In this document: piece by piece, positions 3,643 to 35,409 of the stretch
Position numbering within the stretch: position 1 is the first letter of the stretch
Layout: each line of letters starts with the position of its first letter
From: Klebsiella phage vB_Kpn_004_Koku
Sequence record: PV625053.1
Reading direction: 5' to 3' (one strand)
DNA length: 44,317 nucleotides
The notes under the pieces: generated by a model
Databases searched by the model: none
Told to the model about the DNA's origin: nothing
The model's input: only the letters and a program-made list of their open reading frames with translations
Translations under genes and position numbers: made by a program

Positions 3643-6044
3643 TGGAAGTTCAAGGCTCATTAGGCAGGCAGATTCAAGGTATCAGCCAGCAACCGCCAGC
3701 CGTCCGCCTTGACGGGCAATGCACAGATATGGTTAACATGGTTCCAGATGTTGTTGATGGAACTAAATCCCGCATGGGTACAACTCACCTGAACAAACTG
3801 ATGGCAAAAGGCGAGGACAACATGGCATTCCACCATTACCGTCGAGGTGACGGCGATGAGGAATACTTCTTCGTCATGAAGCAAGGTGCGATCCCTGAAA
3901 TCTTTGATCGCATGGGTAATCGCTGCAATGTCACCTCTTCCGACGCACCTATGGTCTACCTTAGCGAAGTGCAGAACCCAAGGGAAGATGTACAGTTCAT
4001 GACTATTGCAGATGTAACATTCATGCTTAACCGTAGGAAGGTCGTCCGTGCGAGAGAAGAGCGATCACCAAAGGTTGGTTCGACTGCCCTAGTCTTCTGT
4101 GCTTATGGCAATTACGGTACGAAGTACCAGATCACTATTAATGGTCAGGTTGCTGCCGAGTACAAGACAAAGGATGGCGGGGAAGCAAGTCATGTAGAAA
4201 CTATCCGAACCGAGGTTATCGCAGAGCAGTTATTCGTGCAACTACAGCAATGGGATGGTGTGTCACAGTATGATGTATCCCGGATGGGTACTACAATTGT
4301 GATCACCCGCAAGGATGGTAACACTGACTTCACTGTGAGCACCGAGGATGGTGCGAAAGGAAGAGACTTGGTGGCTATCAAGTACAAAGTTACCTCCACT
4401 GACCTGCTGCCGAGTAAGGCACCAGAAGGGTACAAGGTGCAGGTATGGCCTACAGGCAGTAAGCCTGAATCTCGTTACTGGCTGGTGGCTGAGAAAGCAG
4501 AGGGCAACCTTGTGACGTGGAAGGAGACAATCGCAGCAGATGTGAAGTTGGGATTCGACAAGAACACCATGCCCTACATCATTGAGCGCACAGGTATCGT
4601 CGGAGGTGTGGCGCAATTCAAGATTCGCCAAGGTGATTGGGAAGACCGTCGGGTCGGTGACGACTTGACTAACCCGATGCCATCGTTCATTGACGACGAG
4701 GTGCCGCAGCGCTTGGGAGGTATGTTCATGGTACAAAACCGTCTTTGTGTAACAGCAGGCGAGGCTGTAATCATGTCCCGTACTTCCCACTTCTTTGACT
4801 TCTTCCGGTACACGGTAGTATCTGCACTAGACACTGACCCGATTGATATCTTCTCTGATGCAAGCGAGGTCTACCAGCTAAAGCACGCTATCACCTTAGA
4901 CGGCGACACGGTATTGTTCTCTGACAACTCTCAGTTCATCCTACCGGGTGACAAGGCGCTGACCAAGGATAACGCACTGCTGAAACCTGCTACTGCCTTC
5001 GAGGTGAACAACAACGTTCGCCCGGTGGCTACAGGTGAGTCTGTCATGTTCGCTACGAGTGAAGGCTCCTACTCTGGCATCCGGGAGTTCTATACGGATT
5101 CCTACTCTGATACCAAGAAGGCACAGCCTATCACAAGTCACGTCAATAAGTTGATTGAGGGCAACATCATCTCAATGGTGGCAAGTTCCAACATCAACCG
5201 CTTATTCGTGATGGCTGACAAGAACCGCAATGTGGTCTACGTTTATGACTGGCTCTGGCAAGGAACTGACCGAGTGCAGGCAGCCTGGCATCGTTGGGTG
5301 TGGCCTACTGACGTCAAGGTACGAGCGATGTTCTACTCCAGTGAAACGGTATACCTCCTCATTGAGCGAGGGAGTCAGGGTTTATTCCTTGAGAAGATGG
5401 ATATGGGTGACGCTATAGAGTACCACCTTGAAGACCAGATTCGCTTAGACCGCAAGGCGCTCATCTCCTTTGCCTATGACGCTGCGTCGGATGGCTGGTA
5501 CTCTAGCGCGCTTCCGTGGTGGCCGGAGCATCCAGAGATGCTAGAGTGTGTCCTTACGCAAGGGTGGCCTGCCTATGTCGGTGGCTCTTTCCTGTTCCAA
5601 CATGAAGGTGCTGGTAACAGGTTGCATACCACTTTTGACCTTGGCGAAGAGGGCTCTATCGTTCATTGTGTGGTAGGTGAGCATTACTCGCAAGAGTTTG
5701 AGCCTACACCTGTAGTGATCAAAGACTCTCAAGGTCGTACCTCGTACATCGATACGCCTGTCGTTGGGCTCGTTCATCTTAACTTGGACAAGTATCCAGA
5801 CTTCACCGTAGAAATCACGAATGCTTCCGGGCGCAAGCGCGTAGCTAAGGCATCGAACCGCATAGGCGGTGCCCCCAACAACATTGTTGGTTACGTTAAG
5901 CCGAAGGAGGGTATATTCAAGTTCCCGCTACGTGCCAAGGGCACAGATGCGACATACCGTATCAAGTCTGTAGCACCGCACACATTGCAGCTACGGGACA
6001 TTGAGTGGGAGGGTTCGTACAATCCAAGTAAGAGGAGGGTGTAA
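3642..6044 (+). CDS. tail tubular protein B (gp12-like)
   Basis: ORF-track start at 3630 is a TTG; ATG at 3642 sits 5 nt after GGAGG. N-terminus ..LGRQIQGISQQPPAVRLDGQ.. recalls T7 gp12 ..KGGISQQPDILRYPDQ.. Confidence 0.85.
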   Translation: MEVQGSLGRQIQGISQQPPAVRLDGQCTDMVNMVPDVVDGTKSRMGTTHLNKLMAKGEDNMAFHHYRRGDGDEEYFFVMKQGAIPEIFDRMGNRCNVTSSDAPMVYLSEVQNPREDVQFMTIADVTFMLNRRKVVRAREERSPKVGSTALVFCAYGNYGTKYQITINGQVAAEYKTKDGGEASHVETIRTEVIAEQLFVQLQQWDGVSQYDVSRMGTTIVITRKDGNTDFTVSTEDGAKGRDLVAIKYKVTSTDLLPSKAPEGYKVQVWPTGSKPESRYWLVAEKAEGNLVTWKETIAADVKLGFDKNTMPYIIERTGIVGGVAQFKIRQGDWEDRRVGDDLTNPMPSFIDDEVPQRLGGMFMVQNRLCVTAGEAVIMSRTSHFFDFFRYTVVSALDTDPIDIFSDASEVYQLKHAITLDGDTVLFSDNSQFILPGDKALTKDNALLKPATAFEVNNNVRPVATGESVMFATSEGSYSGIREFYTDSYSDTKKAQPITSHVNKLIEGNIISMVASSNINRLFVMADKNRNVVYVYDWLWQGTDRVQAAWHRWVWPTDVKVRAMFYSSETVYLLIERGSQGLFLEKMDMGDAIEYHLEDQIRLDRKALISFAYDAASDGWYSSALPWWPEHPEMLECVLTQGWPAYVGGSFLFQHEGAGNRLHTTFDLGEEGSIVHCVVGEHYSQEFEPTPVVIKDSQGRTSYIDTPVVGLVHLNLDKYPDFTVEITNASGRKRVAKASNRIGGAPNNIVGYVKPKEGIFKFPLRAKGTDATYRIKSVAPHTLQLRDIEWEGSYNPSKRRV

Positions 6045-9703: not shown

Positions 9704-9715
9704 TGTCATACTCAA

Positions 9716-9746
9716 GGGTTGTCCAACACGTTGGACAGCCTTTTAT
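9716..9746 (+). terminator. terminator-like hairpin built on palindrome copy
   Basis: GGGTTGTCCAAC-AC-GTTGGACAGCC then TTTTAT. Confidence 0.55.
9720..9737. repeat. palindrome copy TGTCCAACACGTTGGACA
   Basis: member of 9-copy family GTCCAAC-NN-GTTGGAC; intergenic. Confidence 0.9.
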
Positions 9747-9771
9747 GAATGGCATTAACTAAGGAGGTAAC

Positions 9772-12700
9772 ATGGCTGAATTACCAAGCCAGAGTTGGGT
9801 GGGTGTAGCACAACGTCGGTTGCCGCCTACCTTCTCTCAAGTAGCCGAAGCCGAGCGTAAGCTGGAAGCGCAGCGAGAGCAGGACAAGGTTATGACCACT
9901 GCCCTTGAGAGTGAGTGGGCTCTTTATGGTGGACAACGTGCGTTAGAGCGGGCCACCACCGAGTTTGCACCTCAAGAGGGTTATGAAGTTCCGCAGTCTA
10001 CCGTGGAGGAGTTGTCTCGCATTCACGGATACGAGATTGCACAGGAGATTGTGCAAGGTGTACAGTCTCCAGCAGAGCTACAATTCCGCATGTCCAATGC
10101 ACAGGCGGACAAAGATCGTGCTGAGATTCTCGCCCGTAATGGCTTCACTGGCTTCGCTGCTCAATTGGCTGCTGGTGTGCTCGACCCGGTCGGCTGGGCT
10201 GCATCCGTTGTCGCCGCACCTGTAGCTGGTGCCGTCAAGATAGGCCGCATGGGTCGTGTCCTCAAGACTGGCCTGCTGGCTGCCGGGGAGAATGCTGCAC
10301 TTGAAGCTGTGCTGGCCCAAGGCGACTATCAGCGTAACATCGACGATGTGCTAACGGCTGCTGGTTTCGGCATGGTGATGGGTGGCACTATTGGTGCAGC
10401 GACACGCCAGCGCGTCCGAGGTGTAGAGACGGACACGCCACGTGCAACCGTTGACGACCTTGATACTGTGATTCGCGGTGCCGACGAGTTCGACCAGTCT
10501 GCATCTCGCGCCGTCATGGAGGCGATGGAGTATGATGCATATATGGCTGCTCGCAACTTTGAGCCGCTCAAGGCCAGAGAGGTAGACTTCGACATGGCAA
10601 TCTACCAGCATACCGAAGGCTTGCGCAAGCAGGCTAACGTGCGCATGACTGCTAAGGAGAAGGGGCAACTCAAGGCATCCATTCGTCAGGCAGAGGATGA
10701 GCTACGTGTTATGCAAGAGAGTCGCACCGCTGCCAAGGCGGAGCACGCTGCCAAGAAGGGTGCTGCCCGGAGTAAAGCCGAAGCGCTGGACACCAAGGTG
10801 GAGTTGCAGGCGATTGCCCGTCGCTTTGACGCACCTATCGCGGACGCCACCAAACGCCTTGATGAGCTTAACGCAAAGCTGGCGCAGGTTGAGAATGTGG
10901 CAACGTCAAAGGCAGAGCTTAAACGCTTCTCCAGTCTGTCCCGCGAGGAGCAGATCAAGGAGCTAGGTCTTGAGGTGCCGTCTCGTAAAGTTGACATGCA
11001 CAGCGCAGTGCGCGAGGCGGTAGCCGCTATCCGTGCAGAGCGAACCAAGACACCGACTGAGCTACATGCGGAAGCCGTAGCAGCACGTGAGGCAGAGGCC
11101 AAAGCGCCAGACGACTCCTTGTCGGCAGCGCGTGTGGAGGGGTCAGAGATTCAAGGAGAGCAGTTCGACCTGTCCGATAAGATGGAAGATCTGATGGACG
11201 ACCTTGCACGTGAGGCTTACCAGTCTGATGTGCGACCGGTGTCAACCTTTGGGCTTGGCTCTGTCTCTTCTGTTATCCTTAACTCGAAGAACCCTGTATT
11301 CCGTGGCCTAGGTTTACGCCTACTAGAGAATGCCCAAGGTGGCGCCTATCAGGGCAAGACTGCCTCGATCCTGTCTAACGTATATGGTAACTTGATTCGC
11401 ACAGCAGAGCGTAACCGCTACAACGATGGCTTCTCACAGTTCATCAAGGATAACAATCTGCGCGCTATCGACTACCTGAACCCTGCCGTGACGCGAGACT
11501 TCAACAACCAAATCTACACCGCTATCGTTAAAGGCATACCAGATGATACGCCGAAAGGTGTTAAGCTGGCAGCCGAAGGTATGGCTGATAAGTTGAAGAA
11601 GGCGCTTGAGATACGTAAGCAGGCGGGTGAGGCAGGCTTCGAGGACGTCAAGGCGGCGCGTGACTACATGCCTGTGATTTACGATGGCATCAAGGTTACG
11701 GAGGCTGTGAACCGTATGGGTAGCAGCGAGGCCGTAATTGCACTGCTGTCTAAGGGTTATCAGACTGGCAAGTACAAGCTGGGTAAGAAGTCTGCTGATG
11801 CGCTGGCTAAAGTTCAGTACATTCGCGCTTCGGACTCCACCTTGTCTAGCCGTGTGTCCTTTGATCGTGTGGTATCTCAGCAGCAGCAGGTGCAACTTAT
11901 CGAAGACTTGAAGAAGGCAGGTGTGCCGGATTCTATCATCGACAACTTCATCGAAGGCACAGAGTTGCAGGAGATGGCGGAGTCTGTATCGAATCGCGCC
12001 AAGGCCAGCATGGGTATCAACACTCAGGCTGAGTATGGCGGTATGAAGGTGCAGGACTTGCTGAACACTAACGTGGGCGAGTTGGTCGAGAACTACGGCA
12101 AAGAGGCCGCAGGCGGCGCTGCACTGGCCGCAATGGGCTTCCCTACCCGTCAGTCCGTCTTGAACGCTATCGACGCAGCAGAGCGTGCTGGGCGCAATAT
12201 GGCGGGGTCTGACGCCAAGGCCATTAAGCAACTTCGGGCAGAAGCGGACATGCTCCGTGATTCTGTACGAATGTTGTACGGTAACACCATCGACGCCGAC
12301 CCTAACGCTGGCATCGTCAGAGGCACTCGCCGGGTGCGTGAGGTGACAGGCTTGTTACGCCTTGGTCAGATGGGCTTTGCTCAGATACCAGAGATGGCGC
12401 GGGCTATCACGAAGATGGGGCTTGGCACTGTCCTGAAATCCGTACCAGCCACCAAGTTCCTCCGGTCACGTGCCGGGCGAGAAGGTGGTACTGCACAGGG
12501 CAGACTGCTGGAGCCAGAACTCAGGGAGATGGAGGAGCTTGTCGGGTACATCGGTGAGGACAACTGGCTGACTGGCTGGAACGTCCGTCACGATGAGTTC
12601 GGCGAGACTGCCGACAATCTCAGTCGCCTGTCTGCTGTGATAGACAACGGACTGGCGATGGGTAGTCATATCAACACTTGGCTGTCTGGCTTCAAGGCGG

Positions 12701-13566
12701 TGCAGGGTGGTTCTGAGAAAATCGTCGCTCGTTCAATCAATAAGCGCCTCAAGGAGCACCTGTCCGGTGGACGTAAGCTGCCGCAGCGTGACTTGGATGA
12801 GGTGGGTCTTGACGAGGCAACCATGAAGCGGCTACAGCGCCACTTTGATGAGAACCCGTCTTACGCAGACTATAACGGCGAGAAAGTTCGCATGATGAAC
12901 TTCGACGCTATGGAGCCAGATCTTCGGGAAACTGTAGGTGTGGCGGTGCGCCGTATGTCAGGTCGTCTTATCCAGCGTAACTTCATCGGGGATGAGGGTA
13001 TCTGGATGAACAAATGGTGGGGCAAAGCATTGACTCAATTCAAATCATTCTCCATTGTCTCTATTGAGAAGCAGCTAATTCACGATTTACGGGGTGATAA
13101 GATTCAGGCCGCTCAGATTCTGGCTTGGTCTTCCTTGTTAGGCTTCGCATCCTACGCTACTCAGATGCAGATGCAGGCAATCGGTCGTGCAGATCGAGAC
13201 AAGTTCCTACGTGAGAAATTCGATACCCAAAACATGGCTATGGGTGTGTTCAACAAACTGCCGCAGGTTGCAGGCTTCGGTCTGGCTGGCGATGCATTGG
13301 CGACTCTCGGTCTTATGCCGGATGCGCTTATGCAGGCTCCGGGTCGTATGGGCTTCCAGCAGCAAGGCTTTGGTGAACTCGTAGCAGGTGCGGGTGTCAT
13401 TGGTGATGCCGTGGACTTCTCCAAGGCATTGGTTAAGTACGCCAATGGCGACGATGATGTATCGACTCGACAAATCGTTGACAAGATGCGCCGTCTGGTG
13501 CCACTGGCTAACACGATTGGTATTGGTCAAATGACCAAGGCCAGCGTAGACTTATTGGAGGACTGA
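9772..13566 (+). CDS. internal virion protein C (gp16-like, large ejection protein)
   Basis: 1264 aa ORF with AAGGAGG SD; syntenic with T7 gp16 immediately before the tail fibre/adaptor gene. Confidence 0.8.
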   Translation: MAELPSQSWVGVAQRRLPPTFSQVAEAERKLEAQREQDKVMTTALESEWALYGGQRALERATTEFAPQEGYEVPQSTVEELSRIHGYEIAQEIVQGVQSPAELQFRMSNAQADKDRAEILARNGFTGFAAQLAAGVLDPVGWAASVVAAPVAGAVKIGRMGRVLKTGLLAAGENAALEAVLAQGDYQRNIDDVLTAAGFGMVMGGTIGAATRQRVRGVETDTPRATVDDLDTVIRGADEFDQSASRAVMEAMEYDAYMAARNFEPLKAREVDFDMAIYQHTEGLRKQANVRMTAKEKGQLKASIRQAEDELRVMQESRTAAKAEHAAKKGAARSKAEALDTKVELQAIARRFDAPIADATKRLDELNAKLAQVENVATSKAELKRFSSLSREEQIKELGLEVPSRKVDMHSAVREAVAAIRAERTKTPTELHAEAVAAREAEAKAPDDSLSAARVEGSEIQGEQFDLSDKMEDLMDDLAREAYQSDVRPVSTFGLGSVSSVILNSKNPVFRGLGLRLLENAQGGAYQGKTASILSNVYGNLIRTAERNRYNDGFSQFIKDNNLRAIDYLNPAVTRDFNNQIYTAIVKGIPDDTPKGVKLAAEGMADKLKKALEIRKQAGEAGFEDVKAARDYMPVIYDGIKVTEAVNRMGSSEAVIALLSKGYQTGKYKLGKKSADALAKVQYIRASDSTLSSRVSFDRVVSQQQQVQLIEDLKKAGVPDSIIDNFIEGTELQEMAESVSNRAKASMGINTQAEYGGMKVQDLLNTNVGELVENYGKEAAGGAALAAMGFPTRQSVLNAIDAAERAGRNMAGSDAKAIKQLRAEADMLRDSVRMLYGNTIDADPNAGIVRGTRRVREVTGLLRLGQMGFAQIPEMARAITKMGLGTVLKSVPATKFLRSRAGREGGTAQGRLLEPELREMEELVGYIGEDNWLTGWNVRHDEFGETADNLSRLSAVIDNGLAMGSHINTWLSGFKAVQGGSEKIVARSINKRLKEHLSGGRKLPQRDLDEVGLDEATMKRLQRHFDENPSYADYNGEKVRMMNFDAMEPDLRETVGVAVRRMSGRLIQRNFIGDEGIWMNKWWGKALTQFKSFSIVSIEKQLIHDLRGDKIQAAQILAWSSLLGFASYATQMQMQAIGRADRDKFLREKFDTQNMAMGVFNKLPQVAGFGLAGDALATLGLMPDALMQAPGRMGFQQQGFGELVAGAGVIGDAVDFSKALVKYANGDDDVSTRQIVDKMRRLVPLANTIGIGQMTKASVDLLED

Positions 13567-14786: not shown

Positions 14787-15078
14787 CCGACATGCGGCTA
14801 GTGAAGATGATTTAGGTATCCTTCACAATGCTATTACCAAGATGTTCAACAAGAAGGCACAGGCGATCCTTGATGCTATTGAGGACGACCCTGATGCTGC
14901 CATTGGCCTTGTTTCAGGCAAAGATGTAGGTGCGATGTGTAAGTGGGTGCTGGATAACGGCATCATCGCTACACCTGCCGCACAGCAGGAAGAGAGCAAG
15001 CTGTCTAAACGACTGGCTGCACTCAAGGCTGCATCGCAAGGCAAGGTCATTAACTTTACTGACGTTAAGGAGGCTTAA
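14773..15078 (+). CDS. terminase small subunit (gp18-like); start uncertain
   Basis: ORF-track start 14728 is TTG inside the holin gene; GTG at 14773 lies 6 nt after GGAGGGAG and gives ~101 aa, similar in size and character to T7 gp18. Confidence 0.5.
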   Translation: MAVNNRHAASEDDLGILHNAITKMFNKKAQAILDAIEDDPDAAIGLVSGKDVGAMCKWVLDNGIIATPAAQQEESKLSKRLAALKAASQGKVINFTDVKEA

Positions 15079-16976
15079 TGGCAAAGGCAAGGGAGTCCCA
15101 AGCGGAAGCCCTTGCCCGTTGGGAAATGCTGCGAGAACTACAGCAGGCATTCCCCTATACGGTGCAGGGCTTACTGTCGTTCGCTCAGGTGGTAATCAAT
15201 ACACTAATCACTGGCAACCCCGACCTGAACCGAGTACAAGCCGATATCCTCAAGTTCCTGTTCTCAGGAAACAAGTATCGGATGGTAGAAGCGCAGCGTG
15301 GTCAGGCTAAGACTACCATCGCTGCAATCTATGCGGTGTTCCGTATCATTCACGAACCGCACAAACGCATCATGATCGTATCACAGACAGCCAAGCGAGC
15401 CGAGGAAATCGCAGGGTGGGTGATTAAGATCTTCCGTGGATTGGACTTCCTTGAGTTCATGCTTCCTGATATCTACGCAGGTGACAAGGCTTCAATCAAA
15501 GGCTTCGAGATCCACTATACCTTACGTGGAAGTGACAAGTCTCCGTCTGTCGCTTGCTACTCTATCGAAGCAGGTATGCAGGGTGCGCGTGCAGATATCA
15601 TTCTGGCGGACGACGTTGAGTCGTTGCAGAATAGCCGTACCGCCGCAGGCCGTGCATTGCTGGAGGACTTGACCAAAGAGTTCGAATCCATTAACCAGTT
15701 TGGTGATATCATCTACCTAGGGACGCCGCAGAGCGTTAACTCCATCTACAACAACCTCCCGGCGCGTGGCTACCAGATTCGTATCTGGCCCGGTCGCTAT
15801 CCAACGCTGGAGCAAGAGGCTTGCTATGGGGACTTCTTGGCACCGATGATCCGCCAAGACATGCTTGATAACCCGAACCTTCGATCCGGTTACGGCATCG
15901 ACGGAACTCAAGGGGCACCAACCTGCCCGGAGATGTACGACGATGAGAAGTTGATTGAGAAGGAGATCTCGCAGGGTACGGCTAAGTTCCAGCTACAGTT
16001 CATGCTGAACACTCGCCTGATGGATGCAGACCGCTACCCATTACGCCTGAACAACCTGATCATGATGAGCTTTGGCACCGATGTAGTCCCGGAGATGCCG
16101 ACTTGGAGCAACGATTCGATGAACCTTATCGGCGATGCACCACGCTTCGGTAACAAGCCTACGGACTACCTGTACCGCCCTGTGGCCCGCCCGTATGAGT
16201 GGCGACCGATTCAACGCCGTGTCATGTATATTGACCCGGCTGGTGGCGGTAAGAACGGTGACGAAACGGGCGTAGCTATCGTCTTCCTGCTAGGGACATT
16301 CATCTACGTCTATAAGTGCTTCGGTGTGCCGGGCGGGTACTCGGATAGCGCGCTCAGTCGCATTGTGCGCGAAGCAAAGGCCGCAGAGGTCAAAGAGGTC
16401 TTCATAGAGAAGAACTTCGGTCACGGTGCGTTTGAGGCGGTAATTAAGCCATATTTCGAAAGAGAGTGGCCTGCCGAGTTGAAAGAGGATTATGCGCACG
16501 GACAGAAGGAAGTGCGTATCATCGAGACACTGGAGCCTCTATTCTCTGCGCACCGCATCATCTTCAACGCGGAGATGATTAAGCAGGACATAGACAGCAT
16601 CCAGCACTACCCGCTCGAAACACGTATGAGCTACAGCTTGTTCGGTCAAATCTCGAACATTACTCTGGAGAAAGGATGCCTGCGGCATGACGACCGCTTA
16701 GACGCCCTGTACGGCGCTATACGGCAATTAACTTCTCAGATAGACTATGACGAGGTTAACCGGATAAATCGGCTCAGGGCGCAGGAGATGCGCGATTATC
16801 TGGACATGATGCACGACCCTCGGAGACGACGGGAGTTCTTTACCGGGCAAGACCACGGCTATCGCCCTCGGACGAACACCAGCGATGCCCGTATCCAGTC
16901 CGTGTGGGGTAAATCGGTGCGGCCTAAAACTCGTTCTCGGAATACACTTTCTTCAAGAATTTCAAGGACTTGGTAA
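15078..16976 (+). CDS. terminase large subunit (DNA maturase B, gp19-like)
   Basis: 632 aa, AAGGAGG SD, ATG overlaps upstream stop; P-loop-like ..RGQAKTT.. ; syntenic. Confidence 0.85.
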   Translation: MAKARESQAEALARWEMLRELQQAFPYTVQGLLSFAQVVINTLITGNPDLNRVQADILKFLFSGNKYRMVEAQRGQAKTTIAAIYAVFRIIHEPHKRIMIVSQTAKRAEEIAGWVIKIFRGLDFLEFMLPDIYAGDKASIKGFEIHYTLRGSDKSPSVACYSIEAGMQGARADIILADDVESLQNSRTAAGRALLEDLTKEFESINQFGDIIYLGTPQSVNSIYNNLPARGYQIRIWPGRYPTLEQEACYGDFLAPMIRQDMLDNPNLRSGYGIDGTQGAPTCPEMYDDEKLIEKEISQGTAKFQLQFMLNTRLMDADRYPLRLNNLIMMSFGTDVVPEMPTWSNDSMNLIGDAPRFGNKPTDYLYRPVARPYEWRPIQRRVMYIDPAGGGKNGDETGVAIVFLLGTFIYVYKCFGVPGGYSDSALSRIVREAKAAEVKEVFIEKNFGHGAFEAVIKPYFEREWPAELKEDYAHGQKEVRIIETLEPLFSAHRIIFNAEMIKQDIDSIQHYPLETRMSYSLFGQISNITLEKGCLRHDDRLDALYGAIRQLTSQIDYDEVNRINRLRAQEMRDYLDMMHDPRRRREFFTGQDHGYRPRTNTSDARIQSVWGKSVRPKTRSRNTLSSRISRTW

Positions 16977-16995
16977 TTAGGGGACACTATAGAAG
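16975..16995 (+). promoter_or_regulatory. SP6-type promoter variant after terminase gene
   Basis: AATTAGGGGACACTATAGAAG; followed by AT-rich repeat element. Confidence 0.75.
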
Positions 16996-17063
16996 GAAGA
17001 CCAAGGTAATAAAGGATATTATGGGTAATATAGGATTACCTAGGTTATATAGGTACGCCTTAT
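16996..17063 (+). repeat. AT-rich iteron-like element A downstream of promoter
   Basis: GAAGGAAGACCAAGGTAATAAAGG then ATAGGTA/TATAGG repeats; first 36 nt identical to element at 35334. Confidence 0.7.
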
Positions 17064-17065
17064 TA

Positions 17066-17098
17066 TGAGGGTACTCCAGTACCCTCTTCTTACCTATT
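17066..17098 (+). terminator. hairpin/attenuator downstream of promoter 16975
   Basis: GAGGGTAC-TCCA-GTACCCTC perfect stem followed by TTCTTACCTATTTC. Confidence 0.45.
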
Positions 17099-17128
17099 TC
17101 ACTGTTTACTATAAACAAGGAGTACAGA

Positions 17129-17410
17129 ATGGCTAATAATTATAGTGATCAACCACTAACAGGTCGGTATGATCGAAAACAGGAGACACCTGTAAGTGAA
17201 GCGTTAATGCTTCCTGTTGTTACAGAGGAGTCTATTACGAAGAAAGCCAATGTCATCAATGATGCAACCAAATCTGGCAAACAGAAAGCAGCAATGGTGT
17301 GTCGTCCTGTAGGTGGCACTCTTGAGATTGCCATTGCTACGGGTAGCAAAGAGGACGCAGACTGGTTGTCTGTTAAAATGGATGCCGTTGGTTTTGTTAC
17401 ACCAGTTTAA
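17129..17410 (+). CDS. hypothetical protein, paralog 1 of a triplicated family
   Basis: 93 aa; shares core ..SGKQKAAMV....G.LEIAIATGSKEDADW..VTPV with the next two ORFs; AT-rich codon usage. Confidence 0.7.
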   Translation: MANNYSDQPLTGRYDRKQETPVSEALMLPVVTEESITKKANVINDATKSGKQKAAMVCRPVGGTLEIAIATGSKEDADWLSVKMDAVGFVTPV

Positions 17411-17426: not shown

Positions 17427-17711
17427 ATGTCTAAATATGGTGAGGTAGGTACTACTACTGGTCAGGCTTTTCGTGTAAAAGCAGTACAAACTATTGCAAC
17501 TGCAATCCCTATGCCTGTTGTGGCAGAAGATGACCTTAAAAAGAAAGACCACCCGATTAATATTGAACATCTCTCTGGTAAGCAGAAAGGTGCAATGGTG
17601 GTTGTAGACAAAGGTAACGGCCTCTATATTGCTATTGCACGTGGAAGCAAACCAACTGACATTTGGGATGTAACCACTATGGAACCTGTACCTGTCACAC
17701 CGGGAGTTTAA
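17427..17711 (+). CDS. hypothetical protein, paralog 2
   Basis: 94 aa from ATG 17427 preceded by AAGAGGAGAAG SD; core ..SGKQKGAMVVVDKGNGLYIAIARGSKPTDIW..VTPGV. Confidence 0.7.
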   Translation: MSKYGEVGTTTGQAFRVKAVQTIATAIPMPVVAEDDLKKKDHPINIEHLSGKQKGAMVVVDKGNGLYIAIARGSKPTDIWDVTTMEPVPVTPGV

Positions 17712-17712
17712 T

Positions 17713-18408
17713 ATGCTGGGAGTCACAGGACAACGCAATAAGAATGTAGCAACCAAGGTAGTAGCTGATTTAGCTACTGCTGCTACTGTAGAAGAGTTAC
17801 GAGATCCATATAGCCCTATTAACCGTGCTGAACTTTCTGGCAAACACGAAGGGTCTGCTGTTATTGTTAAGAAAGAAGATGGTAACTATTCCATCTTTGT
17901 GGCAACAGGAAGCAAACCTACTGATGTGTGGAAAGAACTATCACCGACTGTACCTGAGCAGGATTTTCCTACTGAGTACATTGACATGGTTGATGTCCTT
18001 GTACACCCTGATAGTGAATCCAAAGTGAAGGTCATACCAGGAACAAAGACGGTACTTGTCCAAACACCAATGTTTGATGTAGCAGGTGAACTACTGTACC
18101 GTAACAGCCTATCAGCTAAGATCGGGCTGAATTGGGTCATTGGCGCTGCTGCGGCAGATACCATTAAGTTTAAAGTAAATGGTATTCTAGAGTCAGCAGA
18201 AGAGTATTATTCTTTAGATACAGTACAAGCGTTTATCTACACTAATGGCAGGGGTGCAGGTTTCCCTGAGGTTATGGTAGACCCTAAAGATGCAAGAACT
18301 AATGAATTTGGTATCATGGTAAACACTATGCCACCTAATGCATCTCAGTTTGGATTAAACATCACCCTAGAGTGGACTTCACCTACGAGGATCATGTATG
18401 CTAAATAA
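17713..18408 (+). CDS. hypothetical protein, paralog 3 with ~130-aa C-terminal extension
   Basis: 231 aa; N-terminal part ..SGKHEGSAVIVKKEDGNYSIFVATGSKPTDVW.. repeats the family core; stop overlaps endolysin start. Confidence 0.7.
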   Translation: MLGVTGQRNKNVATKVVADLATAATVEELRDPYSPINRAELSGKHEGSAVIVKKEDGNYSIFVATGSKPTDVWKELSPTVPEQDFPTEYIDMVDVLVHPDSESKVKVIPGTKTVLVQTPMFDVAGELLYRNSLSAKIGLNWVIGAAAADTIKFKVNGILESAEEYYSLDTVQAFIYTNGRGAGFPEVMVDPKDARTNEFGIMVNTMPPNASQFGLNITLEWTSPTRIMYAK

Positions 18409-23685: not shown

Positions 23686-23744
23686 CCAAAGGTGGTCACA
23701 AAGTAACCAAAGTCAAAATTTTGATATAGGCGTGTGTCAGCTCT

Positions 23745-23935
23745 CTCGCCCGTCGCCCGTCCGGATTGTCCCCATAGGGGTGCCTAGGGCATTTCTAGGG
23801 CCGGAGGGCGGGACTAGGGCGTTTCTTAGTGAGGGCCAAAGGGTTGCCGGAGGCTGGGCGGGAGGGCGCGATAGGGACACGCAGAGGACGCTTGACAGCG
23901 TGGGAGGGCGTGGGCTATCTGTTCCTTTTTGTGCC
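23745..23935. repeat. genome-terminus region: CCCCATAGGGG palindrome, CTAGGG and GGGAGGGCG repeats (putative terminal repeat / concatemer junction)
   Basis: CCCCATAGGGG parallels the CCCCCATAGGGGG in T7 terminal repeat; GGGAGGGCG occurs three times with a fourth near-copy; non-coding. Confidence 0.5.
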
Positions 23936-23937
23936 TA

Positions 23938-24110
23938 GCCTTGCTTAGTGTTACCTTATGCACTTCCTTATCGTGTACCTTATGCAAGTCTTAGTGACTA
24001 ACTTAGTGCATACCTTAGTAGCTACCTTAGTGATTACCTTAGTCACAACCTATCAATCCTTAGTGTTACCTTAGTGAATTGCATAGCTAAAGCTATAAGA
24101 TGCTATTAGG
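23938..24110. repeat. array of short CCTTAGTG / ACCTTAGT-type direct repeats
   Basis: about 9 tandemly spaced copies of (A)CCTTAGTG-like units, positional analog of T7 left-end CCTAAAG repeats between terminal repeat and first early promoter. Confidence 0.6.
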
Positions 24111-25504: not shown

Positions 25505-25620
25505 TGAACGGCAAGCAATACAACTTCCTGTTTTCTGACGGTGTAACCCTGAAATGCTCCTTGCACTTCGCTATGATGCGCGAGGAGACGCTTGGAACCT
25601 CCTACCGCTTAATTATGTGA
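25504..25620 (+). CDS. small ORF (38 aa), possible gene 0.4-like, uncertain
   Basis: ATG overlaps ocr stop (TAATG); [38 protein letters not shown]; no independent SD. Confidence 0.3.
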   Translation: MNGKQYNFLFSDGVTLKCSLHFAMMREETLGTSYRLIM

Positions 25621-25631
25621 CACTATAAGAG
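25611..25631 (+). promoter_or_regulatory. weak SP6-type promoter variant
   Basis: AATTATGTGACACTATAAGAG (3 mismatches incl. around +1). Confidence 0.4.
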
Positions 25632-25702
25632 GTTTAACAGGGTGCTCTTGCGAGAGTGCCCGATTAAACCAACTTATATTCATTAACTCAAAAGGTGACA
25701 TT

Positions 25703-26686: not shown

Positions 26687-29308
26687 ATGCAAGATCTAAT
26701 GAACATGCAGCTTCAACTTGAAGACGAGATGTTTAACGGTGGTATCCGCCGCTTTGAAGCTGACCAGCAGCGCCAGATTGCAAGCGGTAATGAATCCGAT
26801 ACTGCATGGAATCGCCGCCTGCTGTCTGAATTGATTGCACCTATGGCCGAGGGTATCCAAGCGTATAAAGAAGAGTACGAAGGTAAGAAAGGCCGCGCCC
26901 CGCGTGCTCTTGCTTTCCTGCAATGCGTAGAAAACGAGGTTGCAGCCTACATCACCATGAAAGTGGTTATGGATATGCTGAACACCGATGTAACCCTTCA
27001 AGCTATTTCTATGGCGGTGGCTGACCGCATTGAAGACCAAGTCCGCTTTAGCAAGCTGGAAGGTCACGCCGCTAAATACTTTGAGAAAGTCAAAGCAAGC
27101 CTGAAAGCAAGCCGCACTAAATCTTATCGCCACGCGCATAACGTATGCGTAGTTGCTGAGAAATCAGTGGCGGCTAAAGATGGCGAGTTCGACCGCTGGG
27201 AGGCATGGCCTAAAGACACCCTCCTGCAAATCGGGACTACCTTGCTTGAAATCTTGGAGAATAGCGTATTCTTTAATGGTGAGCCTGTATTCATGCGTGC
27301 AATGCGTGCGGTAGCTGGTAAAACTGTCTACTACCTGCAAACGTCTGAAACCGTGGGCGAGTGGATCGCAGCATTCAAAGACCACGTAGCGCAACTGTCC
27401 CCGGCTTATGCTCCTTGCGTAGTACCGCCGCGTCCTTGGGTATCCCCGTTCAATGGCGGCTTCCACACTGAGAAGGTGGCTAGTCGTGTTCGTCTGGTCA
27501 AAGGCGACCGCGAACATGTTCGCAAGCTGACCAAAAAGCAGATGCCTAAAGTTTACAAGGCTGTTAACGCCCTGCAAAACACTCAATGGCAAATTAACAA
27601 GGAAGTATTAGCGGTAGTGGAGGAAGTGATCCGCCTTGACCTTGGTTATGGTAAGATTCCACACTTCAAGCCCATCATTGACAAGGAGAACAAGCCAGCG
27701 AACCCGGTTCCGGTTGAGTTCCAGCACCTTCGCGGGCGTGAGTTAAAGGAAATGCTCACCGCTGACCAGTGGCAAGCCTTCATTAACTGGAAGGGCGAAT
27801 GTGCGAAGCTGTACACCGCAGAGACTAAGCGCGGCTCCAAGTCCGCCGCCGTGGTTCGCATGGTTGGACAGGCTCGCAAATACAGCGCTTTTGATGCGAT
27901 TTACTTCGTATATGCACTGGATAGCCGTTCCCGCGTTTATGCGCAGTCTAGCACGCTCTCACCGCAGTCTAACGACTTAGGCAAGGCATTGCTCCGCTTC
28001 ACCGAAGGGCAGCCGCTTGACACCGCTGAGGCGCTTAAATGGTTCCTCATCTCCGGCGCTAACCTGTGGGGTTGGGATAAGAAAACCTTTGATGTACGTC
28101 AAGCTAACGTGTGGGATGCAGAGTTTCAAGATATGTGCCGGGATATCGCCGCCGACCCGCTCACCTTCACACAGTGGGCTAAAGCGGACGAGCCTTACGA
28201 GTTCCTCGCATGGTGCTTTGAATATGCCCGCTATCTGGATGCTCTGGAAGATGGCACCCGCGATGAGTTCCGCACGCACTTACCAGTACACCAAGACGGC
28301 TCATGCTCTGGCATCCAGCACTATAGCGCTATGCTGAAAGATGAGCGCGGCGCTATCGCTGTTAACCTGAAACCGGGAGACGCTCCGCAAGATATTTACG
28401 GCGCGGTTGCGCAGGTGGTTATTGCGAAGAATGCCCTGTACATGGACGCCGACGAAGGGCTGACCTTCGAATCTGGTAGCCTGAAACTGTCCGGCGCTGA
28501 CCTCCGCGCGATGGCGAATGCCTGGGATATGGTAGGCATCACCCGGTCACTGACCAAGAAGCCTGTTATGACCCTGCCGTATGGCTCCACTCGCCTAACC
28601 TGCCGCGAATCTGTGATCGACTACATCGTTGATCTGGAAGAGAAAGAGGCGCAGAAAGCAGCAGTAGAAGGGCGGGCATCTAACAAGGTACACCCGTTCG
28701 AAGAAGGGCAGGCACTGGAACCAGCGATGGCATACAACTACATGACTGCTTTGATTTGGCCGTCAATCTCTGAGGTTGTGAAGGCTCCGATTGTTGCGAT
28801 GAAGATGATTCGCCAGCTTGCACGCTTCGCAGCTAAACGCAACGAAGGGCTGGAATATACGCTGCCGACTGGCTTCATCCTGAAACAGAAAATCATGGCA
28901 ACCGAAATGCTCCGCGTGCGTACCTGTCTGATGGGTGATATCAAGATGAGCCTGCAAGTGGAAACTGACATTGTAGATGAAACTGCAATGATGGGCGCAG
29001 CAGCACCGAATTTTGTACACGGTCACGATGCGAGCCACCTGATTCTCACAGTCTGCGATCTGGTAGACAAGGGTATCAAATCTATAGCTGTGATTCACGA
29101 CTCCTTCGGGACTCATGCAGGCCGTACCTTAGACCTCCGCAACTCCCTGAAAGGGCAGATGGTGGAAATGTATGAACACACTAACGCACTGGAGAAACTA
29201 CTGGAAGAACACGAAGAACGCTGGAAGGTTGACACTGGCATCAAAGTACCAGAGCAAGGCACCTTCGACGTCCGGGAAATCTTAGAGTCTGACTATTGCT
29301 TCGCTTAA
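26687..29308 (+). CDS. single-subunit DNA-directed RNA polymerase (SP6 RNAP-like)
   Basis: 873 aa (SP6 RNAP is 874 aa as I recall); long stretches match SP6 RNAP as I recall it ([28 protein letters not shown]..; ..[20 protein letters not shown]..; ..[10 protein letters not shown]..); the genome uses SP6-consensus promoters. Confidence 0.95.
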
Positions 29309-29315
29309 TATTAAT

Positions 29316-29348
29316 AGGGCCAGCCTTCGGGTTGGCCTTTTCTTTTGC
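29316..29348 (+). terminator. terminator after RNAP gene
   Basis: GGCCAGCC-TTCG-GGTTGGCC (one G-U) followed by TTTTCTTTTG. Confidence 0.75.
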
Positions 29349-29400: not shown

Positions 29401-29421
29401 ATTTAGGAGACACTATAGGAC
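29401..29421 (+). promoter_or_regulatory. SP6-type promoter variant (origin region, left)
   Basis: ATTTAGGAGACACTATAGGAC. Confidence 0.7.
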
Positions 29422-29537
29422 TACCCGTCGGAGACGGAAAGTAATAGGTAGTTAAAGGTAATAAAGGGAAGATAGGTAATATAGGTAGTCCTAGGTTACA
29501 CTTCCTTTATTCTCCTTCCTTATTACCTCAGGGAGTC
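29422..29537 (+). repeat. AT-rich iteron-like element C between two promoters (candidate primary origin)
   Basis: AAAGGTAATAAAGGG, ATAGGTAATATAGGTAG, imperfect inverted repeat ..GGTAATAAAGGGAAG../..CTTCCTTTATT..CCTTATTACC. Confidence 0.65.
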
Positions 29538-29538
29538 C

Positions 29539-29556
29539 TGTCCAACGTGTTGGACA
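29539..29556. repeat. palindrome copy TGTCCAACGTGTTGGACA
   Basis: 4 bp upstream of promoter 29561. Confidence 0.9.
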
Positions 29557-29560
29557 ACCT

Positions 29561-29581
29561 ATTTAGGTGACACTATTGAAC
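29561..29581 (+). promoter_or_regulatory. SP6-type promoter variant (origin region, right; gene 1.1)
   Basis: ATTTAGGTGACACTATTGAAC. Confidence 0.7.
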
Positions 29582-29609: not shown

Positions 29610-29735
29610 ATGCGTAACTTCGAGAAAATGACCCGTAAATCTACCCGCTTCGATGAGTTCGAAGGGAAGAAAGGTAGCAAGCGTAATAAGATTGTACGCG
29701 ACCGTGCATCTAAACGCGCTGCATGGGAGATCTAA
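29610..29735 (+). CDS. gp1.1-like small basic protein (41 aa)
   Basis: MRNFEKMTRKSTRFDEFEGKKGSKRNKIVRDRASKRAAWEI vs T7 gp1.1 MRNFEKMTKRSNRNARDFEATKGRKLNKTKRDRSHKRSWEGQ; GGAG SD; same position after the origin-like region. Confidence 0.8.
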   Translation: MRNFEKMTRKSTRFDEFEGKKGSKRNKIVRDRASKRAAWEI

Positions 29736-32734: not shown

Positions 32735-35281
32735 ATGAAAGATATTGATTGGATTAAAGAAGCCCAAGGCCGTATCCTTGTGATGGATGCGGAAGCTAAA
32801 GGTCTACTTGATGCCATCCGATACGGACACCGCGAGGACGTGCATATCATTTGCTGCATGGACTTGCTGACCACCGAAGAGTTCCTGTTCTTCGACCCGT
32901 ATGAGATGCGCGACCCGGAAGCGCGGGAGCGACTCAAGGAGTGGGAAGGGTTTCAGGACGGAGATCTTGTGGATGGCGTGAACTTCCTCAAGCACTGCGA
33001 GGCTATCATCTCACAGAACTTCCTAGGATATGACGGCTTGCTCTTTGAGAAGGCATTCCCGTCTGTGTGGCGTGGCTTTAACTACACAGAGAAGCGCGGG
33101 AAAGGCCGTCTGCGGGCCGATCTCTGCCCGGTAAGGGTTATGGATACCCTCGTTATGTCACGCCTCCTGAACCCGGATAGGCGGCTTCCTCCGCAGGCTT
33201 ACGCTAAAGGTATGGGTAACGTGGCCCCTCACTCAATCGAGGCGCACGGCATCCGCATCGGGCGCTATAAGCCAGAGAACGAAGACTGGTCTAAGCTGAC
33301 AGACCATATGGTTCACCGTGTCCGCGAGGACGTGGCGATTGGTCGTGACCTATTCCTGTGGCTGCATAACGGCGAATGGAAGGAGCACAAGGCGCGTGGT
33401 GTCAACCCTCGCACTGGCCTTGGCATCGAAACGGCATTCCACATGGAGTCTATCGTTGCGCTGGAAATGACCCGGCAGGCAGAGCGTGGCTTCCGACTGG
33501 ATATCGACAAGGCACTAGCCCGCTGCCAAGAACTCGACGAGAAGATCGACGAGACAGTAGCAGCATTCCGCCCGCACATGCCTATGCGTATCAAGTCAAA
33601 GCCGTTCAAGCCACAAGAGAAGGAGGAACAAATCGATGCAGCAAACAGCTACGCGGCGTTACATTCGTTGGGTACGAGGCTCTCAGAAGACGCCTTCTTA
33701 CATGTGGAACGCAGGGGTGATAGGAAGACTGTATGGGCCGTCACCACTAAGTCTGGAGATTGGTCTGCTACTGTCAAGAAAGATTTTCCTCACATTAGAG
33801 GAAATATTAATGACACGCCAAGCCTCAAGCACATTGGCCCTTACTCGCCAGTCACCTTTGAAGAGATCCCACTAGGGAACCGTGACACGGTGAAGCAGGT
33901 ACTCTATGACTTCGGGTGGCGAGGTGTAGAGTTCAACGATACAGAGCAGGCATACATCGACGAGAACGGTGTGCCGCCTAAACCTTGGAGTGGTAAGATC
34001 AATGAGAAGTCGATTGCTGTTTGGAAGGAAAGAGCCGCACGTGAAGGTAAAGCAGTCCCCGATTGGTGCTTGGGTATCGCTGCATGGTACATACTCGTAT
34101 CCCGTCGCGGTCAGATCCTCAATCGTGGTGACGTTGAAGCCTTCGATCAGAAAGGAGCGTGGCCCTCGCAGGCTGGTGTACGAAAGTGTCGCGGCCTTAT
34201 ACCTGTAGCCTTCAACAAAGAGCTTGGCATCAATGCACAAACGTACTACGAAACCTATGGGTGCTGGCCTACGTCTGATAAGGACGATGGTGAGTGGCGT
34301 GTTCCTGCCGTTGCTATCAGTATTGGAACTTCTACTTTCCGTATGCGGCATCGTAATGTTGTTAATATCCCCGCCCGTGGCTTATACCCTCTTCGTGATT
34401 TATTCATTGCAGGAAAAGGTAAGCTAATCCTTGGCTGCGACGGCGCAGGTCTGGAGTTGCGTGTATTATCGCACTTCATGAACGACCCTGAATACCAAGA
34501 GATCGTGTTGCACGGTGACATTCACACCCATAACCAGCTTAAAGCTGGCCTGCCGAAGCGCGACATGGCGAAGACTTTCATCTACGCCTTCCTGTATGGC
34601 TCCGGTATTGCCAACCTAGCGGCAGTTTGTGGCGTCACGGAGGAGGAGATGAAGGAAGTGGTGGCTCGTTTTGAGATTGAGCTACCATCACTGGCTCGAC
34701 TTCGTGAGAATGTTATCGCTGCCGGGAATAAGTTTGGCTACCTTCAAGCGCCGGATGGTCATTGGGGCCGCATCCGTATGGCTAACGGTGAACTCAAAGA
34801 GCACACCATGCTGAACGTGTTGCTCCAAATGACAGGATCACTGTGTATGAAATACGCACTGGTGAAAGCATTTGCTGTCATGCGCAGAGAGGGAGTAGCG
34901 CTGGATGATATGGGAAATCCTTGTGGTGTGGCTAACGTCCACGATGAAATCCAGATGGAGGTGCCAGAAGATGAGGTCTTGTACCTTGACTATGAGTTAC
35001 CTTTCACCTTGGAAGGCTTCGAAAATGAGAAGGCAGCTATCAAAGCTGTGTTTGATCCAGAGGAGAAACGTGTACATGTCGATTCAGAAGGCCGGATGTG
35101 GTCTGCTGCCAACCTCGTTAGCGTTGATCACGATGCTGGTGTGTTGCGTTGCCAGCGTAAATATCACCGTGCTGGTCATATTATCGCTGATGCAATGACT
35201 TGGGCTGGCAAATATCTTAACATGCGCTGCCCTATGGCTGGCGAATATAAGATCGGTGCAAGCTGGAAAGAGACTCACTAA
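32735..35281 (+). CDS. DNA polymerase, family A (T7 gp5-like)
   Basis: 848 aa; motif A ..DGAGLELRVL.., motif B ..RDMAKTFIYAFLYG.., motif C ..VHDEIQ.. as in T7 DNAP. Confidence 0.9.
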   Translation: MKDIDWIKEAQGRILVMDAEAKGLLDAIRYGHREDVHIICCMDLLTTEEFLFFDPYEMRDPEARERLKEWEGFQDGDLVDGVNFLKHCEAIISQNFLGYDGLLFEKAFPSVWRGFNYTEKRGKGRLRADLCPVRVMDTLVMSRLLNPDRRLPPQAYAKGMGNVAPHSIEAHGIRIGRYKPENEDWSKLTDHMVHRVREDVAIGRDLFLWLHNGEWKEHKARGVNPRTGLGIETAFHMESIVALEMTRQAERGFRLDIDKALARCQELDEKIDETVAAFRPHMPMRIKSKPFKPQEKEEQIDAANSYAALHSLGTRLSEDAFLHVERRGDRKTVWAVTTKSGDWSATVKKDFPHIRGNINDTPSLKHIGPYSPVTFEEIPLGNRDTVKQVLYDFGWRGVEFNDTEQAYIDENGVPPKPWSGKINEKSIAVWKERAAREGKAVPDWCLGIAAWYILVSRRGQILNRGDVEAFDQKGAWPSQAGVRKCRGLIPVAFNKELGINAQTYYETYGCWPTSDKDDGEWRVPAVAISIGTSTFRMRHRNVVNIPARGLYPLRDLFIAGKGKLILGCDGAGLELRVLSHFMNDPEYQEIVLHGDIHTHNQLKAGLPKRDMAKTFIYAFLYGSGIANLAAVCGVTEEEMKEVVARFEIELPSLARLRENVIAAGNKFGYLQAPDGHWGRIRMANGELKEHTMLNVLLQMTGSLCMKYALVKAFAVMRREGVALDDMGNPCGVANVHDEIQMEVPEDEVLYLDYELPFTLEGFENEKAAIKAVFDPEEKRVHVDSEGRMWSAANLVSVDHDAGVLRCQRKYHRAGHIIADAMTWAGKYLNMRCPMAGEYKIGASWKETH

Positions 35282-35322
35282 TTATTATTCTTCCTTTGTG
35301 TCACTTAAATTCTCTACCTTTT

Positions 35323-35343
35323 ATTTAGGTGACACTATAGAAG
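35323..35343 (+). promoter_or_regulatory. SP6-type promoter after DNAP
   Basis: ATTTAGGTGACACTATAGAAG exact; followed by AT-rich repeat element. Confidence 0.9.
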
Positions 35344-35400
35344 GAAGACCAAGGTAATAAAGGTCTTATAGGTAGTATAGATAAATAAGGTAAATATAGG
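35344..35400 (+). repeat. AT-rich iteron-like element B downstream of promoter
   Basis: GAAGGAAGACCAAGGTAATAAAGG then TATAGGTAGTATAGATAAATAAGGTAAATATAGG. Confidence 0.7.
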
Positions 35401-35409
35401 AGATTAAAT

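Follow-up and report, generated by a model that had tools for sequence, protein, structure and literature searches.

Phased TAGGTA arrays downstream of phage promoters at three loci of Klebsiella phage vB_Kpn_004_Koku: a conserved SP6-group element and candidate replication origin

A promoter and AT-rich DNA are generally regarded as all that defines an origin in the T7 supergroup, and we know of no SP6-group phage whose replication origins have been mapped. In T7, each origin requires a phage promoter, with phi1.1A/B serving as primary and phiOR and phi6.5 as secondary origins; an R-loop mechanism has been discussed, and phiOR has been employed as a functional plasmid origin (PMC8373140). Here, we analyzed the genome of Klebsiella phage vB_Kpn_004_Koku (Koku; sequence record PV625053.1), a complete, circularly permuted SP6-like podophage genome (Autographiviridae, Molineuxvirinae) of 44,317 nucleotides (nt), hereafter called the window. 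We found that three of its phage promoters, beginning at positions 16975, 29401 and 35323, each fire into a phased array of short units built on the word TAGGTA. The combination of an SP6-type promoter and a phased TAGGTA array is a conserved, family-wide cis-element of Molineuxvirinae. With a probability of roughly 40%, judged from position and composition, these modules may be promoter-dependent, transcript-primed replication origins that double as structured mRNA leaders.

The window shares 92–95% identity over matched segments with Klebsiella phages cp4, IME184 and K1-ULIP33, and its physical genome ends map near 23.9–24.2 kb. The + strand holds all genes and all 11 SP6-type promoters (0 expected), including those at 16975, 29401, 29561 and 35323. 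The three modules follow the genes for the large terminase (TerL, 15078–16976), the RNA polymerase (RNAP, 26687–29308) and the DNA polymerase (DNAP, 32735–35281), and the promoter stands directly upstream of the array in every case (3/3). Each promoter is followed by 6–7 purine-rich, C-poor units with the consensus ATAGGTAAT and a spacing of 9–10 nt. The post-TerL array (16992–17056, + strand) has seven RGG cores at 16994, 17004, 17013, 17023, 17032, 17042 and 17051, spaced 10-9-10-9-10-9 from +3 of the 16975 transcript, in a tract of 62% purine, 65% AT and 10% C. After RNAP, six units at 29441–29499 (+ strand), including AAGGTAATAAAGG and CCTAGGTTA, have cores spaced 10-9-9-9-10, beginning at about +25 of the 29401 transcript, 3' of a 5' stem-loop. 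The post-DNAP array and leader (35340–35409, + strand; 71% purine, 71% AT, 4% C) has cores at 35342, 35352, 35361, 35370, 35388 and 35398, spaced 10-9-9-18-10 from +3 of the 35323 transcript. Across the three array tracts, purines make up 62–71%, AT 59–71% and C 4–11% (genome C, 23%). The AT fraction is 0.65 after TerL, 0.59 after RNAP and 0.71 after DNAP, compared with 0.50 in the genome; other promoters of the window reach 0.55–0.61 over +1 to +100.

The shared words are confined to these loci: AAGGTAATAAAGG occurs three times in the genome, once per locus (17003, 29455 and 35351), all five + strand copies of ATAGGTA (5/5) lie inside the three loci, and CCTAGGTTA is common to 17039 and 29490. 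Tandem Repeats Finder (TRF) reports period-9 arrays at 29453–29487 and 35352–35400. The original prediction had noticed ATAGGTA-type repeats downstream of the 16975 and 35323 promoters, which motif counts, TRF and core spacing confirm, and the same motifs in an origin-like region at 29422; the element after the RNAP gene (29401–29530) indeed carries an array with AAGGTAATAAAGG and ATAGGTA. It had further described a 36-nt identical string after both promoters. A 31-nt string does occur exactly at 16985 and 35333 and nowhere else, and the exact common run is 33 nt rather than 36 (16983–17015 = 35331–35363, from promoter −9 to transcript +24). When the promoter is counted in, the two elements agree at 39 of 41 positions; past +24, the leaders differ in sequence and follow the same design. 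The 33-nt run is the longest among 8 genomes (10–22 nt in the others) and may reflect at most a local homogenised patch in the Koku genome.

Two of the three modules stand where T7 and T3 have origins. The order in Koku is RNAP, promoter, array, promoter, gp1.1 homologue; that in T7 is gene 1, phi1.1A, R1.1, phi1.1B, AT-rich region, gene 1.1; and the T3 record annotates a primary rep_origin at 5682–5758, starting about 18 nt 3' of phi1.05. The post-RNAP module resembles the T7/T3 primary origin in its place directly behind the RNAP gene and ahead of the gp1.1 gene, in its tandem phage promoters, in an AT-enriched repeat tract that begins about 10–30 nt past the start site, and in a hairpin element between the promoters. 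Conversely, the SP6-group tract has an AT fraction of 0.59, compared with 0.70–0.77, and is purine-rich and C-poor; its TAGGTA unit is strictly phased, whereas the CTTAAG/CTTTAAG repeats of T7/T3 are loosely spaced; and its distal half pairs with a pyrimidine arm. The promoter at 16975, directly after TerL, occupies the position of T7/T3 phiOR (downstream of gene 19), and in both groups a 135–180 nt AT/purine-rich leader precedes small non-essential genes. Short resemblances of the form AGGTTA...TATAG also exist, the phiOR leaders of T3 and T7 holding TATAGGTTAGTCATTCAGGTTATGC and AAAGGTTACTATATAGATAC, similar to CCTAGGTTATATAGGTAC in Koku. Unlike the SP6-group leader, those of T7/T3 phiOR contain 1–2 TAGGTTA-like units without a phased array, and they lack the covarying hairpin and pyrimidine tail found in the SP6 group. 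For the post-DNAP site, T7 offers no exact equivalent. The T7/T3 origin promoters (phiOL, phi1.1B/phi1.05 and phi6.5) have the most AT-rich leaders, mostly with 2–4 copies of a CTTAAG-type repeat (about 0.16 expected). The analogy to T7 origins that had been drawn for this DNA gains support from the positions of the 29401 and 16975 modules, but the AT-richness is modest and the specific phased motif is unexplained by AT-rich DNA.

We investigated the distribution of the module in nine related genomes and about 50 loci from IMG/VR; conservation of the post-DNAP site is based on 8 genomes, a route through the downstream protein adding only 2 loci. A promoter and an array follow both RNAP and TerL in every sampled lineage: SP6, UAB_Phi78, K1-5, CrRp3, the Klebsiella phages K1-ULIP33 and cp4, Proteus PM116, Lelliottia phD2B, Pectobacterium PP1 and uncultured contigs, with Citrobacter relatives showing them too. 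The leader shared between loci is therefore found in relatives, at syntenic sites, as expected for a conserved, reused unit and not for a chance likeness. The term "reused" applies in the sense that the same unit stands at three loci; it does not extend to a recent duplication, as the promoter variants are site-specific across genomes, with AATTAGGGG after TerL (kept in SP6, K1-ULIP33, UAB_Phi78 and cp4) and ATTTAGGTG after DNAP. Because these site-specific variants are kept across genomes, the three sites are old orthologous positions. The full-text literature searched yielded no account of the arrays; the primary genome papers of SP6 and K1-5 lay outside that coverage, so an earlier description is possible.

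Phasing is a general property of the arrays. Among 39 leaders, 71% of core-to-core spacings were 9–10 nt, compared with 7% in shuffles, and most of the remaining spacings were multiples. The core A-G-G-T-A is kept at 63–100% per position across genera, and the number of units per array is 5–7 and similar at all sites, which together extend from +3 to about +65 of the transcript (post-RNAP site, from about +25). A strict phased-array scan of both strands of ten genomes, with shuffled genomes as the control (about 0), detected arrays in 8 of the 10 genomes, there on the + strand only and at promoter-proximal sites only; association with promoters is thus exclusive, and one strand is used. The same scan missed phD2B and PP1 altogether and picked up a single one of the three Koku loci; the array at 29441–29499 is detected on the + strand only. 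The unit (A/T)nATAGGTA(A/G)T persists where the specificity region of the promoter has changed (TTTACTGGAC in K1-5, AAAGACCAC in PM116, GGGGCTAC in phD2B and GGGCGGAC in PP1).

Four other accounts of the units were tried and rejected. Partial promoter copies or decoys do not fit, since TAGGTA is kept in phages whose promoters lack TAGGTG; because the motif is unchanged where promoter specificity bases differ, the units are not promoter fragments. An open reading frame (ORF) within the array, starting with an ATG at 17021, fails because this codon is not kept in the closest leader, that of CrRp3 (ATA there). For a CsrA-type GGA sponge, the position weight matrix of the unit is unsuitable, with T after GG in 70% of units and A in 23%. 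As Shine-Dalgarno (SD)-like landing pads for ribosomes, the units are weak (−4.0 to −5.7 kcal/mol against the anti-SD, whereas real SDs of the window score −7.3 to −9.3), and about 20% of random 9-mers reach −4 kcal/mol.

In addition to the arrays, two of the loci encode conserved structures. In the post-TerL locus, the SP6-type promoter AATTAGGGGACACTATAGAAG (16975–16995, + strand; +1 at 16992; 2 mismatches to consensus) overlaps the stop codon of the large terminase (16974–16976). Downstream of the array lie a GC-rich hairpin with a perfect 8-bp stem, GAGGGTAC-TCCA-GTACCCTC (17067–17086, + strand; dG −12.2), and a pyrimidine-rich tail, TTCTTACCTATTTC (17087–17100, + strand), predicted to pair with the transcript 5' end, GAAGGAAGA, and an ATAGGTA unit (z −2.2). 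The predicted fold of this leader is multibranched, with no single duplex. The position of the hairpin is conserved, with at least six different stem sequences among homologues; the inner five pairs are paired in 10 of 10 distinct stem variants, with 2–3 pair types each, and 0 of 2000 shuffles equalled this in a loop-centred alignment. The manual, loop-centred pair count was used because MAFFT broke the register of the 20-nt hairpin set; MAFFT with RNAalifold on whole post-TerL leaders gave no pairs, the hairpin being misaligned. A helix that closes the leader by pairing 5' GAAGGARG with the pyrimidine tail was seen in most of 17 homologues, the structures being read by eye (z −1.9 to −6.3). 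No Rfam family reached its gathering score anywhere in the window.

The post-RNAP locus begins with the first of two tandem promoters (29401–29421, + strand; +1 at 29418), followed by the 5' stem-loop CCGTC-GGA-GACGG (29425–29437, + strand). This stem-loop covaries in homologues, and its middle position takes all four Watson-Crick pairs (CCGTC/GACGG, CCATC/GATGG, CCCTC/GAGGG and CCTTC/GAAGG). A pyrimidine-rich arm, ACTTCCTTTATTCTCCTTCCTTATTACCTC (29500–29529, + strand), pairs with the distal half of the array in a long irregular hairpin (29441–29529; −46.6 kcal/mol, z −2.5) of about 17–21 stacked bp with internal loops. The hairpin of array and arm is predicted in nearly all of 25 homologues (z −2.5 to −6.7), and the arm sequences are lineage-specific. 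Farther downstream are the second tandem promoter (29561–29581, + strand), identified by the SP6-type promoter scan, and a gene of the T7 gp1.1 family (29610–29735, + strand; Pfam Phage_1_1, E = 4e-11).

In the post-DNAP locus, a consensus SP6 promoter, ATTTAGGTGACACTATAGAAG (35323–35343, + strand; 0 mismatches; +1 at 35340), lies 41 nt past the DNAP stop codon, and the last unit of its array is the SD of the gene at 35410–35787. Folded alone, the leader at 35340–35409 formed no duplex and was unstructured (z −0.66). Upstream of the promoter is an inverted, degenerate promoter copy, CTTCCTTTGTGTCACTTAAAT (35290–35310, + strand), which in read-through RNA would pair with 35323–35347; the resulting hairpin of about 25 bp would enclose the promoter in the read-through DNAP mRNA (146-nt fold of 35270–35415, −33.8 kcal/mol, z −2.1), and UAB_Phi78 has a shorter version of this inverted repeat. 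The stretch from the DNAP stop codon to the promoter is 41 nt here (35282–35322); in relatives, the equivalent spacer (K1-ULIP33 12564–13022; SP6 12128–12542) is an insertion hot spot, with HNH homing endonuclease genes, small ORFs and a classical RNase III site.

The reading of the modules as origins draws on synteny with T7/T3, exclusive coupling to promoters and an R-loop-prone composition, as purine-rich, C-poor arrays favour R-loops. The modules would be the SP6-group counterparts of the promoter-dependent origins of T7/T3, with that at 29401–29560 as the primary origin and those at 16975–17100 and 35323–35409 as secondary origins. The phage RNAP would initiate at the promoter and transcribe the array, and the purine-rich RNA and its pyrimidine-rich template could then form a persistent hybrid (R-loop) in TpA-rich, easily unwound DNA. 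The 3' end of the transcript would prime the phage DNA polymerase, and the primase-helicase would enter on the displaced strand. The primase of SP6 is said to recognise 5'-GCA-3'. The array transcripts would double as mRNA leaders, with the RNA shaped or stabilised by the stem-loop at 29425–29437, the hairpins at 29441–29529 and 17067–17086, and the pairing of the tail with the 5' end. A secondary source credits Dobbins et al. (2004) with assigning a bidirectional origin to the neighbourhood of the SP6 DNAP gene; the post-DNAP module adjoins this gene, which speaks for an origin.

Several observations weigh against replication origins. The AT fraction of the arrays (0.59–0.71) is below that of T7/T3 origins (0.68–0.77), and an unwinding or R-loop model does not explain the conserved exact TAGGTA core and its 9.5-nt phase. 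The post-DNAP array, present in all other sampled lineages, is absent from PM116 and PP1. Cumulative GC/AT skew is monotonic, with all genes on one strand, and hence uninformative for origin location. The sense and antisense folds of the post-RNAP homologues differ by just −1.6 kcal/mol (p = 0.054), so that RNA and DNA structure are not separable by this comparison. Finally, the structures at two of the sites are strongly supported and show compensatory changes, which fit a role at the RNA level at least as well.

Such a role may be the only one. It is nearly as likely as an origin, and a real possibility, that the modules form a conserved 5' untranslated region (UTR) domain for transcript stability, processing or translation, for example by shielding the 5' end from decay, with no part in replication. 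The covarying hairpins at 29425 and 17067 point in this direction, as do the closing of most post-TerL leaders by their 5' ends and tails, the long array hairpin with its lineage-specific arms, the confinement of the arrays to the sense strand, and the use of the last 35323 unit as an SD. It is harder to reconcile with the 35323 leader, which shares the 33-nt identity and is unstructured, and with the TAGGTA core, which is invariant across genera, whereas pairing alone would let the arms covary freely. In the post-RNAP locus, a second promoter separates the array from the next start codon, so that the array there is not a translation element, and the leader of the capsid gene, which is highly expressed, has no array.

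The conservation of the exact word and phase would be best explained by a protein, with the array as a tandem, iteron-like platform for a sequence-specific phage or host factor. This factor could contact the array as a duplex, as a displaced single strand or as RNA, and might act in origin licensing or in another process, such as the timing of promoters, pausing of RNAP or packaging. We consider this doubtful. The A-G-G-T-A core and the 9–10-nt phase are kept across genera although the surrounding intergenic DNA diverges, and the similar unit number at all sites (5–7) would suit a platform. These genomes also contain other DNA words that seem to be read in trans, namely a palindrome (GTCCAACRYGTTGGAC) replaced in concert by GTCTCACATGTGAGAC in Vectrevirus genomes, and the left end holds a conserved array of TACCTTAGTG (12-bp period), which is related to the unit with the strand inverted. 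Like plasmid and phage iterons, the arrays are regularly spaced tandem direct repeats beside an AT-rich, easily melted region; unlike them, they have units of 9–10 bp rather than 17–22 bp, are tied strictly to a promoter and a single strand, and have no known initiator. The analysis yielded no candidate protein, a period of 9.5 bp does not match the helical repeat and is below classical iteron length, and no T7-group origin is known to require an initiator beyond RNAP. A narrower prediction, to which we give still less weight, combines this platform with an origin: a dedicated phage or host factor would read the TAGGTA array and license transcript-primed initiation.

It is improbable that the arrays are RNase III processing sites comparable to the R-sites of T7/T3. 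The T7/T3 sites R1.1, R3.8, R6.5 and R13 are structured elements directly after or around phage promoters, and the T3 annotation places stem-loops in this way at R1.1, R1.3, R3.8, R6.5 and R13. The post-RNAP hairpin has the roughly two helical turns of interrupted duplex expected of such a site, with 17–21 or so stacked bp and internal loops, and lies at the position of T7 R1.1, between phi1.1A and phi1.1B, and the inverted repeat at 35290–35347 encloses its promoter as T3 R6.5 and R13 do. The arrays, however, lack the consensus CTCAAGG...CCTTTATGA, and the post-DNAP leader, one of the three, has no duplex. A regular expression that recovers T7 R0.3, R0.5 and R1.1 and T3 R0.3, R0.5, R1.1, R4.7 and R6.5 had no match in the three leaders, and SP6-group phages have classical sites elsewhere (SP6 12233 and 30560, K1-5 12518, CrRp3 7452 and 25456). 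In K1-5, SP6 and CrRp3, a classical site lies just 5' of the post-DNAP promoter, which argues that the array is a separate element; cp4 also has such a site just upstream of this promoter. By the criterion of consensus sequence, the arrays are distinct from classical RNase III sites. In the window itself, an RNase III consensus, CTCAAGGGTTGTCCAACACGTTGGACAGCCTTTTATGA, was found by eye at 9711–9750, in the CCTTTTATGA variant. It lies between two genes for internal virion proteins, its stem is the dispersed palindrome described below, and equivalents occur at SP6 30560, UAB_Phi78 31450, CrRp3 25456 and PP1 33093.

For the hairpin at 17067, the original prediction had proposed an attenuator, with a U-rich tail, ahead of three paralogous genes. 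The paralogy is confirmed, as 3/3 genes (17129–17410, 17427–17711 and 17713–18408, + strand) match phrog_2725, and the perfect 8-bp stem is present; the tail, TTCTTACCTATTT, is pyrimidine-rich and lacks a U-run. That the hairpin works as a transcriptional attenuator or terminator and holds back read-through into the paralogues is very unlikely: the stem is stable, GC-rich and perfect, its position is conserved with covariation, and a pyrimidine-rich tract follows directly, but no U-run occurs here (TTCTTACC) or in relatives (TATTCCTTAC, GACCTTT), a terminator scan that calls phage terminators at 2866–2890 and 29316–29339 is silent at 17067, and essential late genes (endolysin, tailspikes) lie downstream. 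The first paralogue gene is preceded by the SD AAGGAG (17117–17122, + strand; −8.0 kcal/mol against the anti-SD). The paralogues share an N-terminal domain of about 90 aa (phrog_2725) with no Pfam match, for which the PHROGs label "acetyl-CoA acetyltransferase" looks unreliable, and the third has an additional C-terminal domain (phrog_32357).

The post-TerL leader is also a mosaic joint (16936–17085): Klebsiella relatives align only up to about 17045–17085, and the match to E. coli Vectrevirus phages starts at about 16936. From this alignment, the module would therefore act as a homology patch for the exchange of late accessory and tailspike cassettes. That the arrays are nothing else, a recombination or gene-conversion scar or homology patch with no function beyond the promoters, is the least probable reading. 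The mosaic joint speaks for it, as does the exact 33-nt run, which exceeds those of other genomes and suggests local homogenisation; but a scar would not account for units that keep a 9–10-nt phase, a single strand and a steady number in at least six genera, nor for covarying hairpins, and the site-specific promoter variants indicate long-term orthology.

Other conserved features lie near the modules. The 16-bp palindrome GTCCAAC(R)(Y)GTTGGAC (GTCCAACRYGTTGGAC) is present in 9 copies (about 0 expected), at 9721, 24203, 29376, 29540, 30338, 31745, 32687, 37206 and 41928, some of them inside genes. Copies lie 10–25 bp 5' of the promoters at 29401, 29561 and 37237, and two bracket the post-RNAP array. 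Six other SP6-group genomes have 9 copies each, mostly at matching positions; in K1-5 and CrRp3, the palindrome is replaced in concert by GTCTCACATGTGAGAC (5 copies), and T7 and T3 lack it. The concerted replacement suggests a putative trans-acting reader.

An array of about 10 TACCTTAGTG copies, repeating every 12 bp, occupies 23940–24080 (TRF 23990–24077), immediately within the physical left end, and is kept in SP6, K1-5, K1-ULIP33, UAB_Phi78, PM116 and PP1. In reverse complement, its core equals the leader unit CTAAGGTA, and a single GCCTTAGTG precedes the hairpin in many post-TerL leaders. The left-end array is probably related to packaging or concatemer processing. T7 reportedly has terminal short-repeat arrays, SRL and SRR, which it resembles as a conserved short-repeat array just inside the left end of the genome; it differs from the leader arrays in period, strand and location and has no promoter. 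The T3 origin contains CTTTAGGT, which we take to be the reverse complement of the T7-type end repeat ACCTAAAG. A G-rich tract at 23740–23915, in which CTAGGGC/GGAGGGCG motifs recur, probably represents the direct terminal repeat, with approximate ends. At the inner edge of this probable repeat, CTATCTGTT (23915–23923) lies inside the conserved GGGCTATCTGTTC and is kept in all SP6-group left ends examined. It contains ATCTGTT, presumably the same class-II signal for pausing or termination of T7-type RNAPs that T7 carries at its concatemer junction. In the early region, the promoter-like ATTATGTGACACTATAAAGAGG (25611–25632), with TATAA in place of TATAG, may be a weak or early phage promoter; it is syntenic in SP6, K1-5, K1-ULIP33, UAB_Phi78, cp4 and CrRp3, and a conserved hairpin lies 3' of it.

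The SP6 group includes K1-5, K1E and many Klebsiella and Salmonella phages that are therapeutic candidates. The present analysis defines three precise, conserved candidate elements in which the promoter, the phased 9.5-nt TAGGTA array and the covarying hairpins are separately mutable. If they are RNA leaders, they represent a conserved UTR architecture of use in expression design. If the platform reading were true, SP6-group origins would gain an iteron-like layer of specificity, in which the strand-inverted TACCTTAGTG arrays of the genome end may take part. If they are origins, they would provide compact, orthogonal, promoter-dependent origins for SP6-RNAP systems, as with T7 phiOR, and would show that origins of the T7 supergroup can bear a specific repeated word beyond AT-richness. 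Whether origins or leaders, the modules mark boundaries of gene-cassette exchange among these phages.

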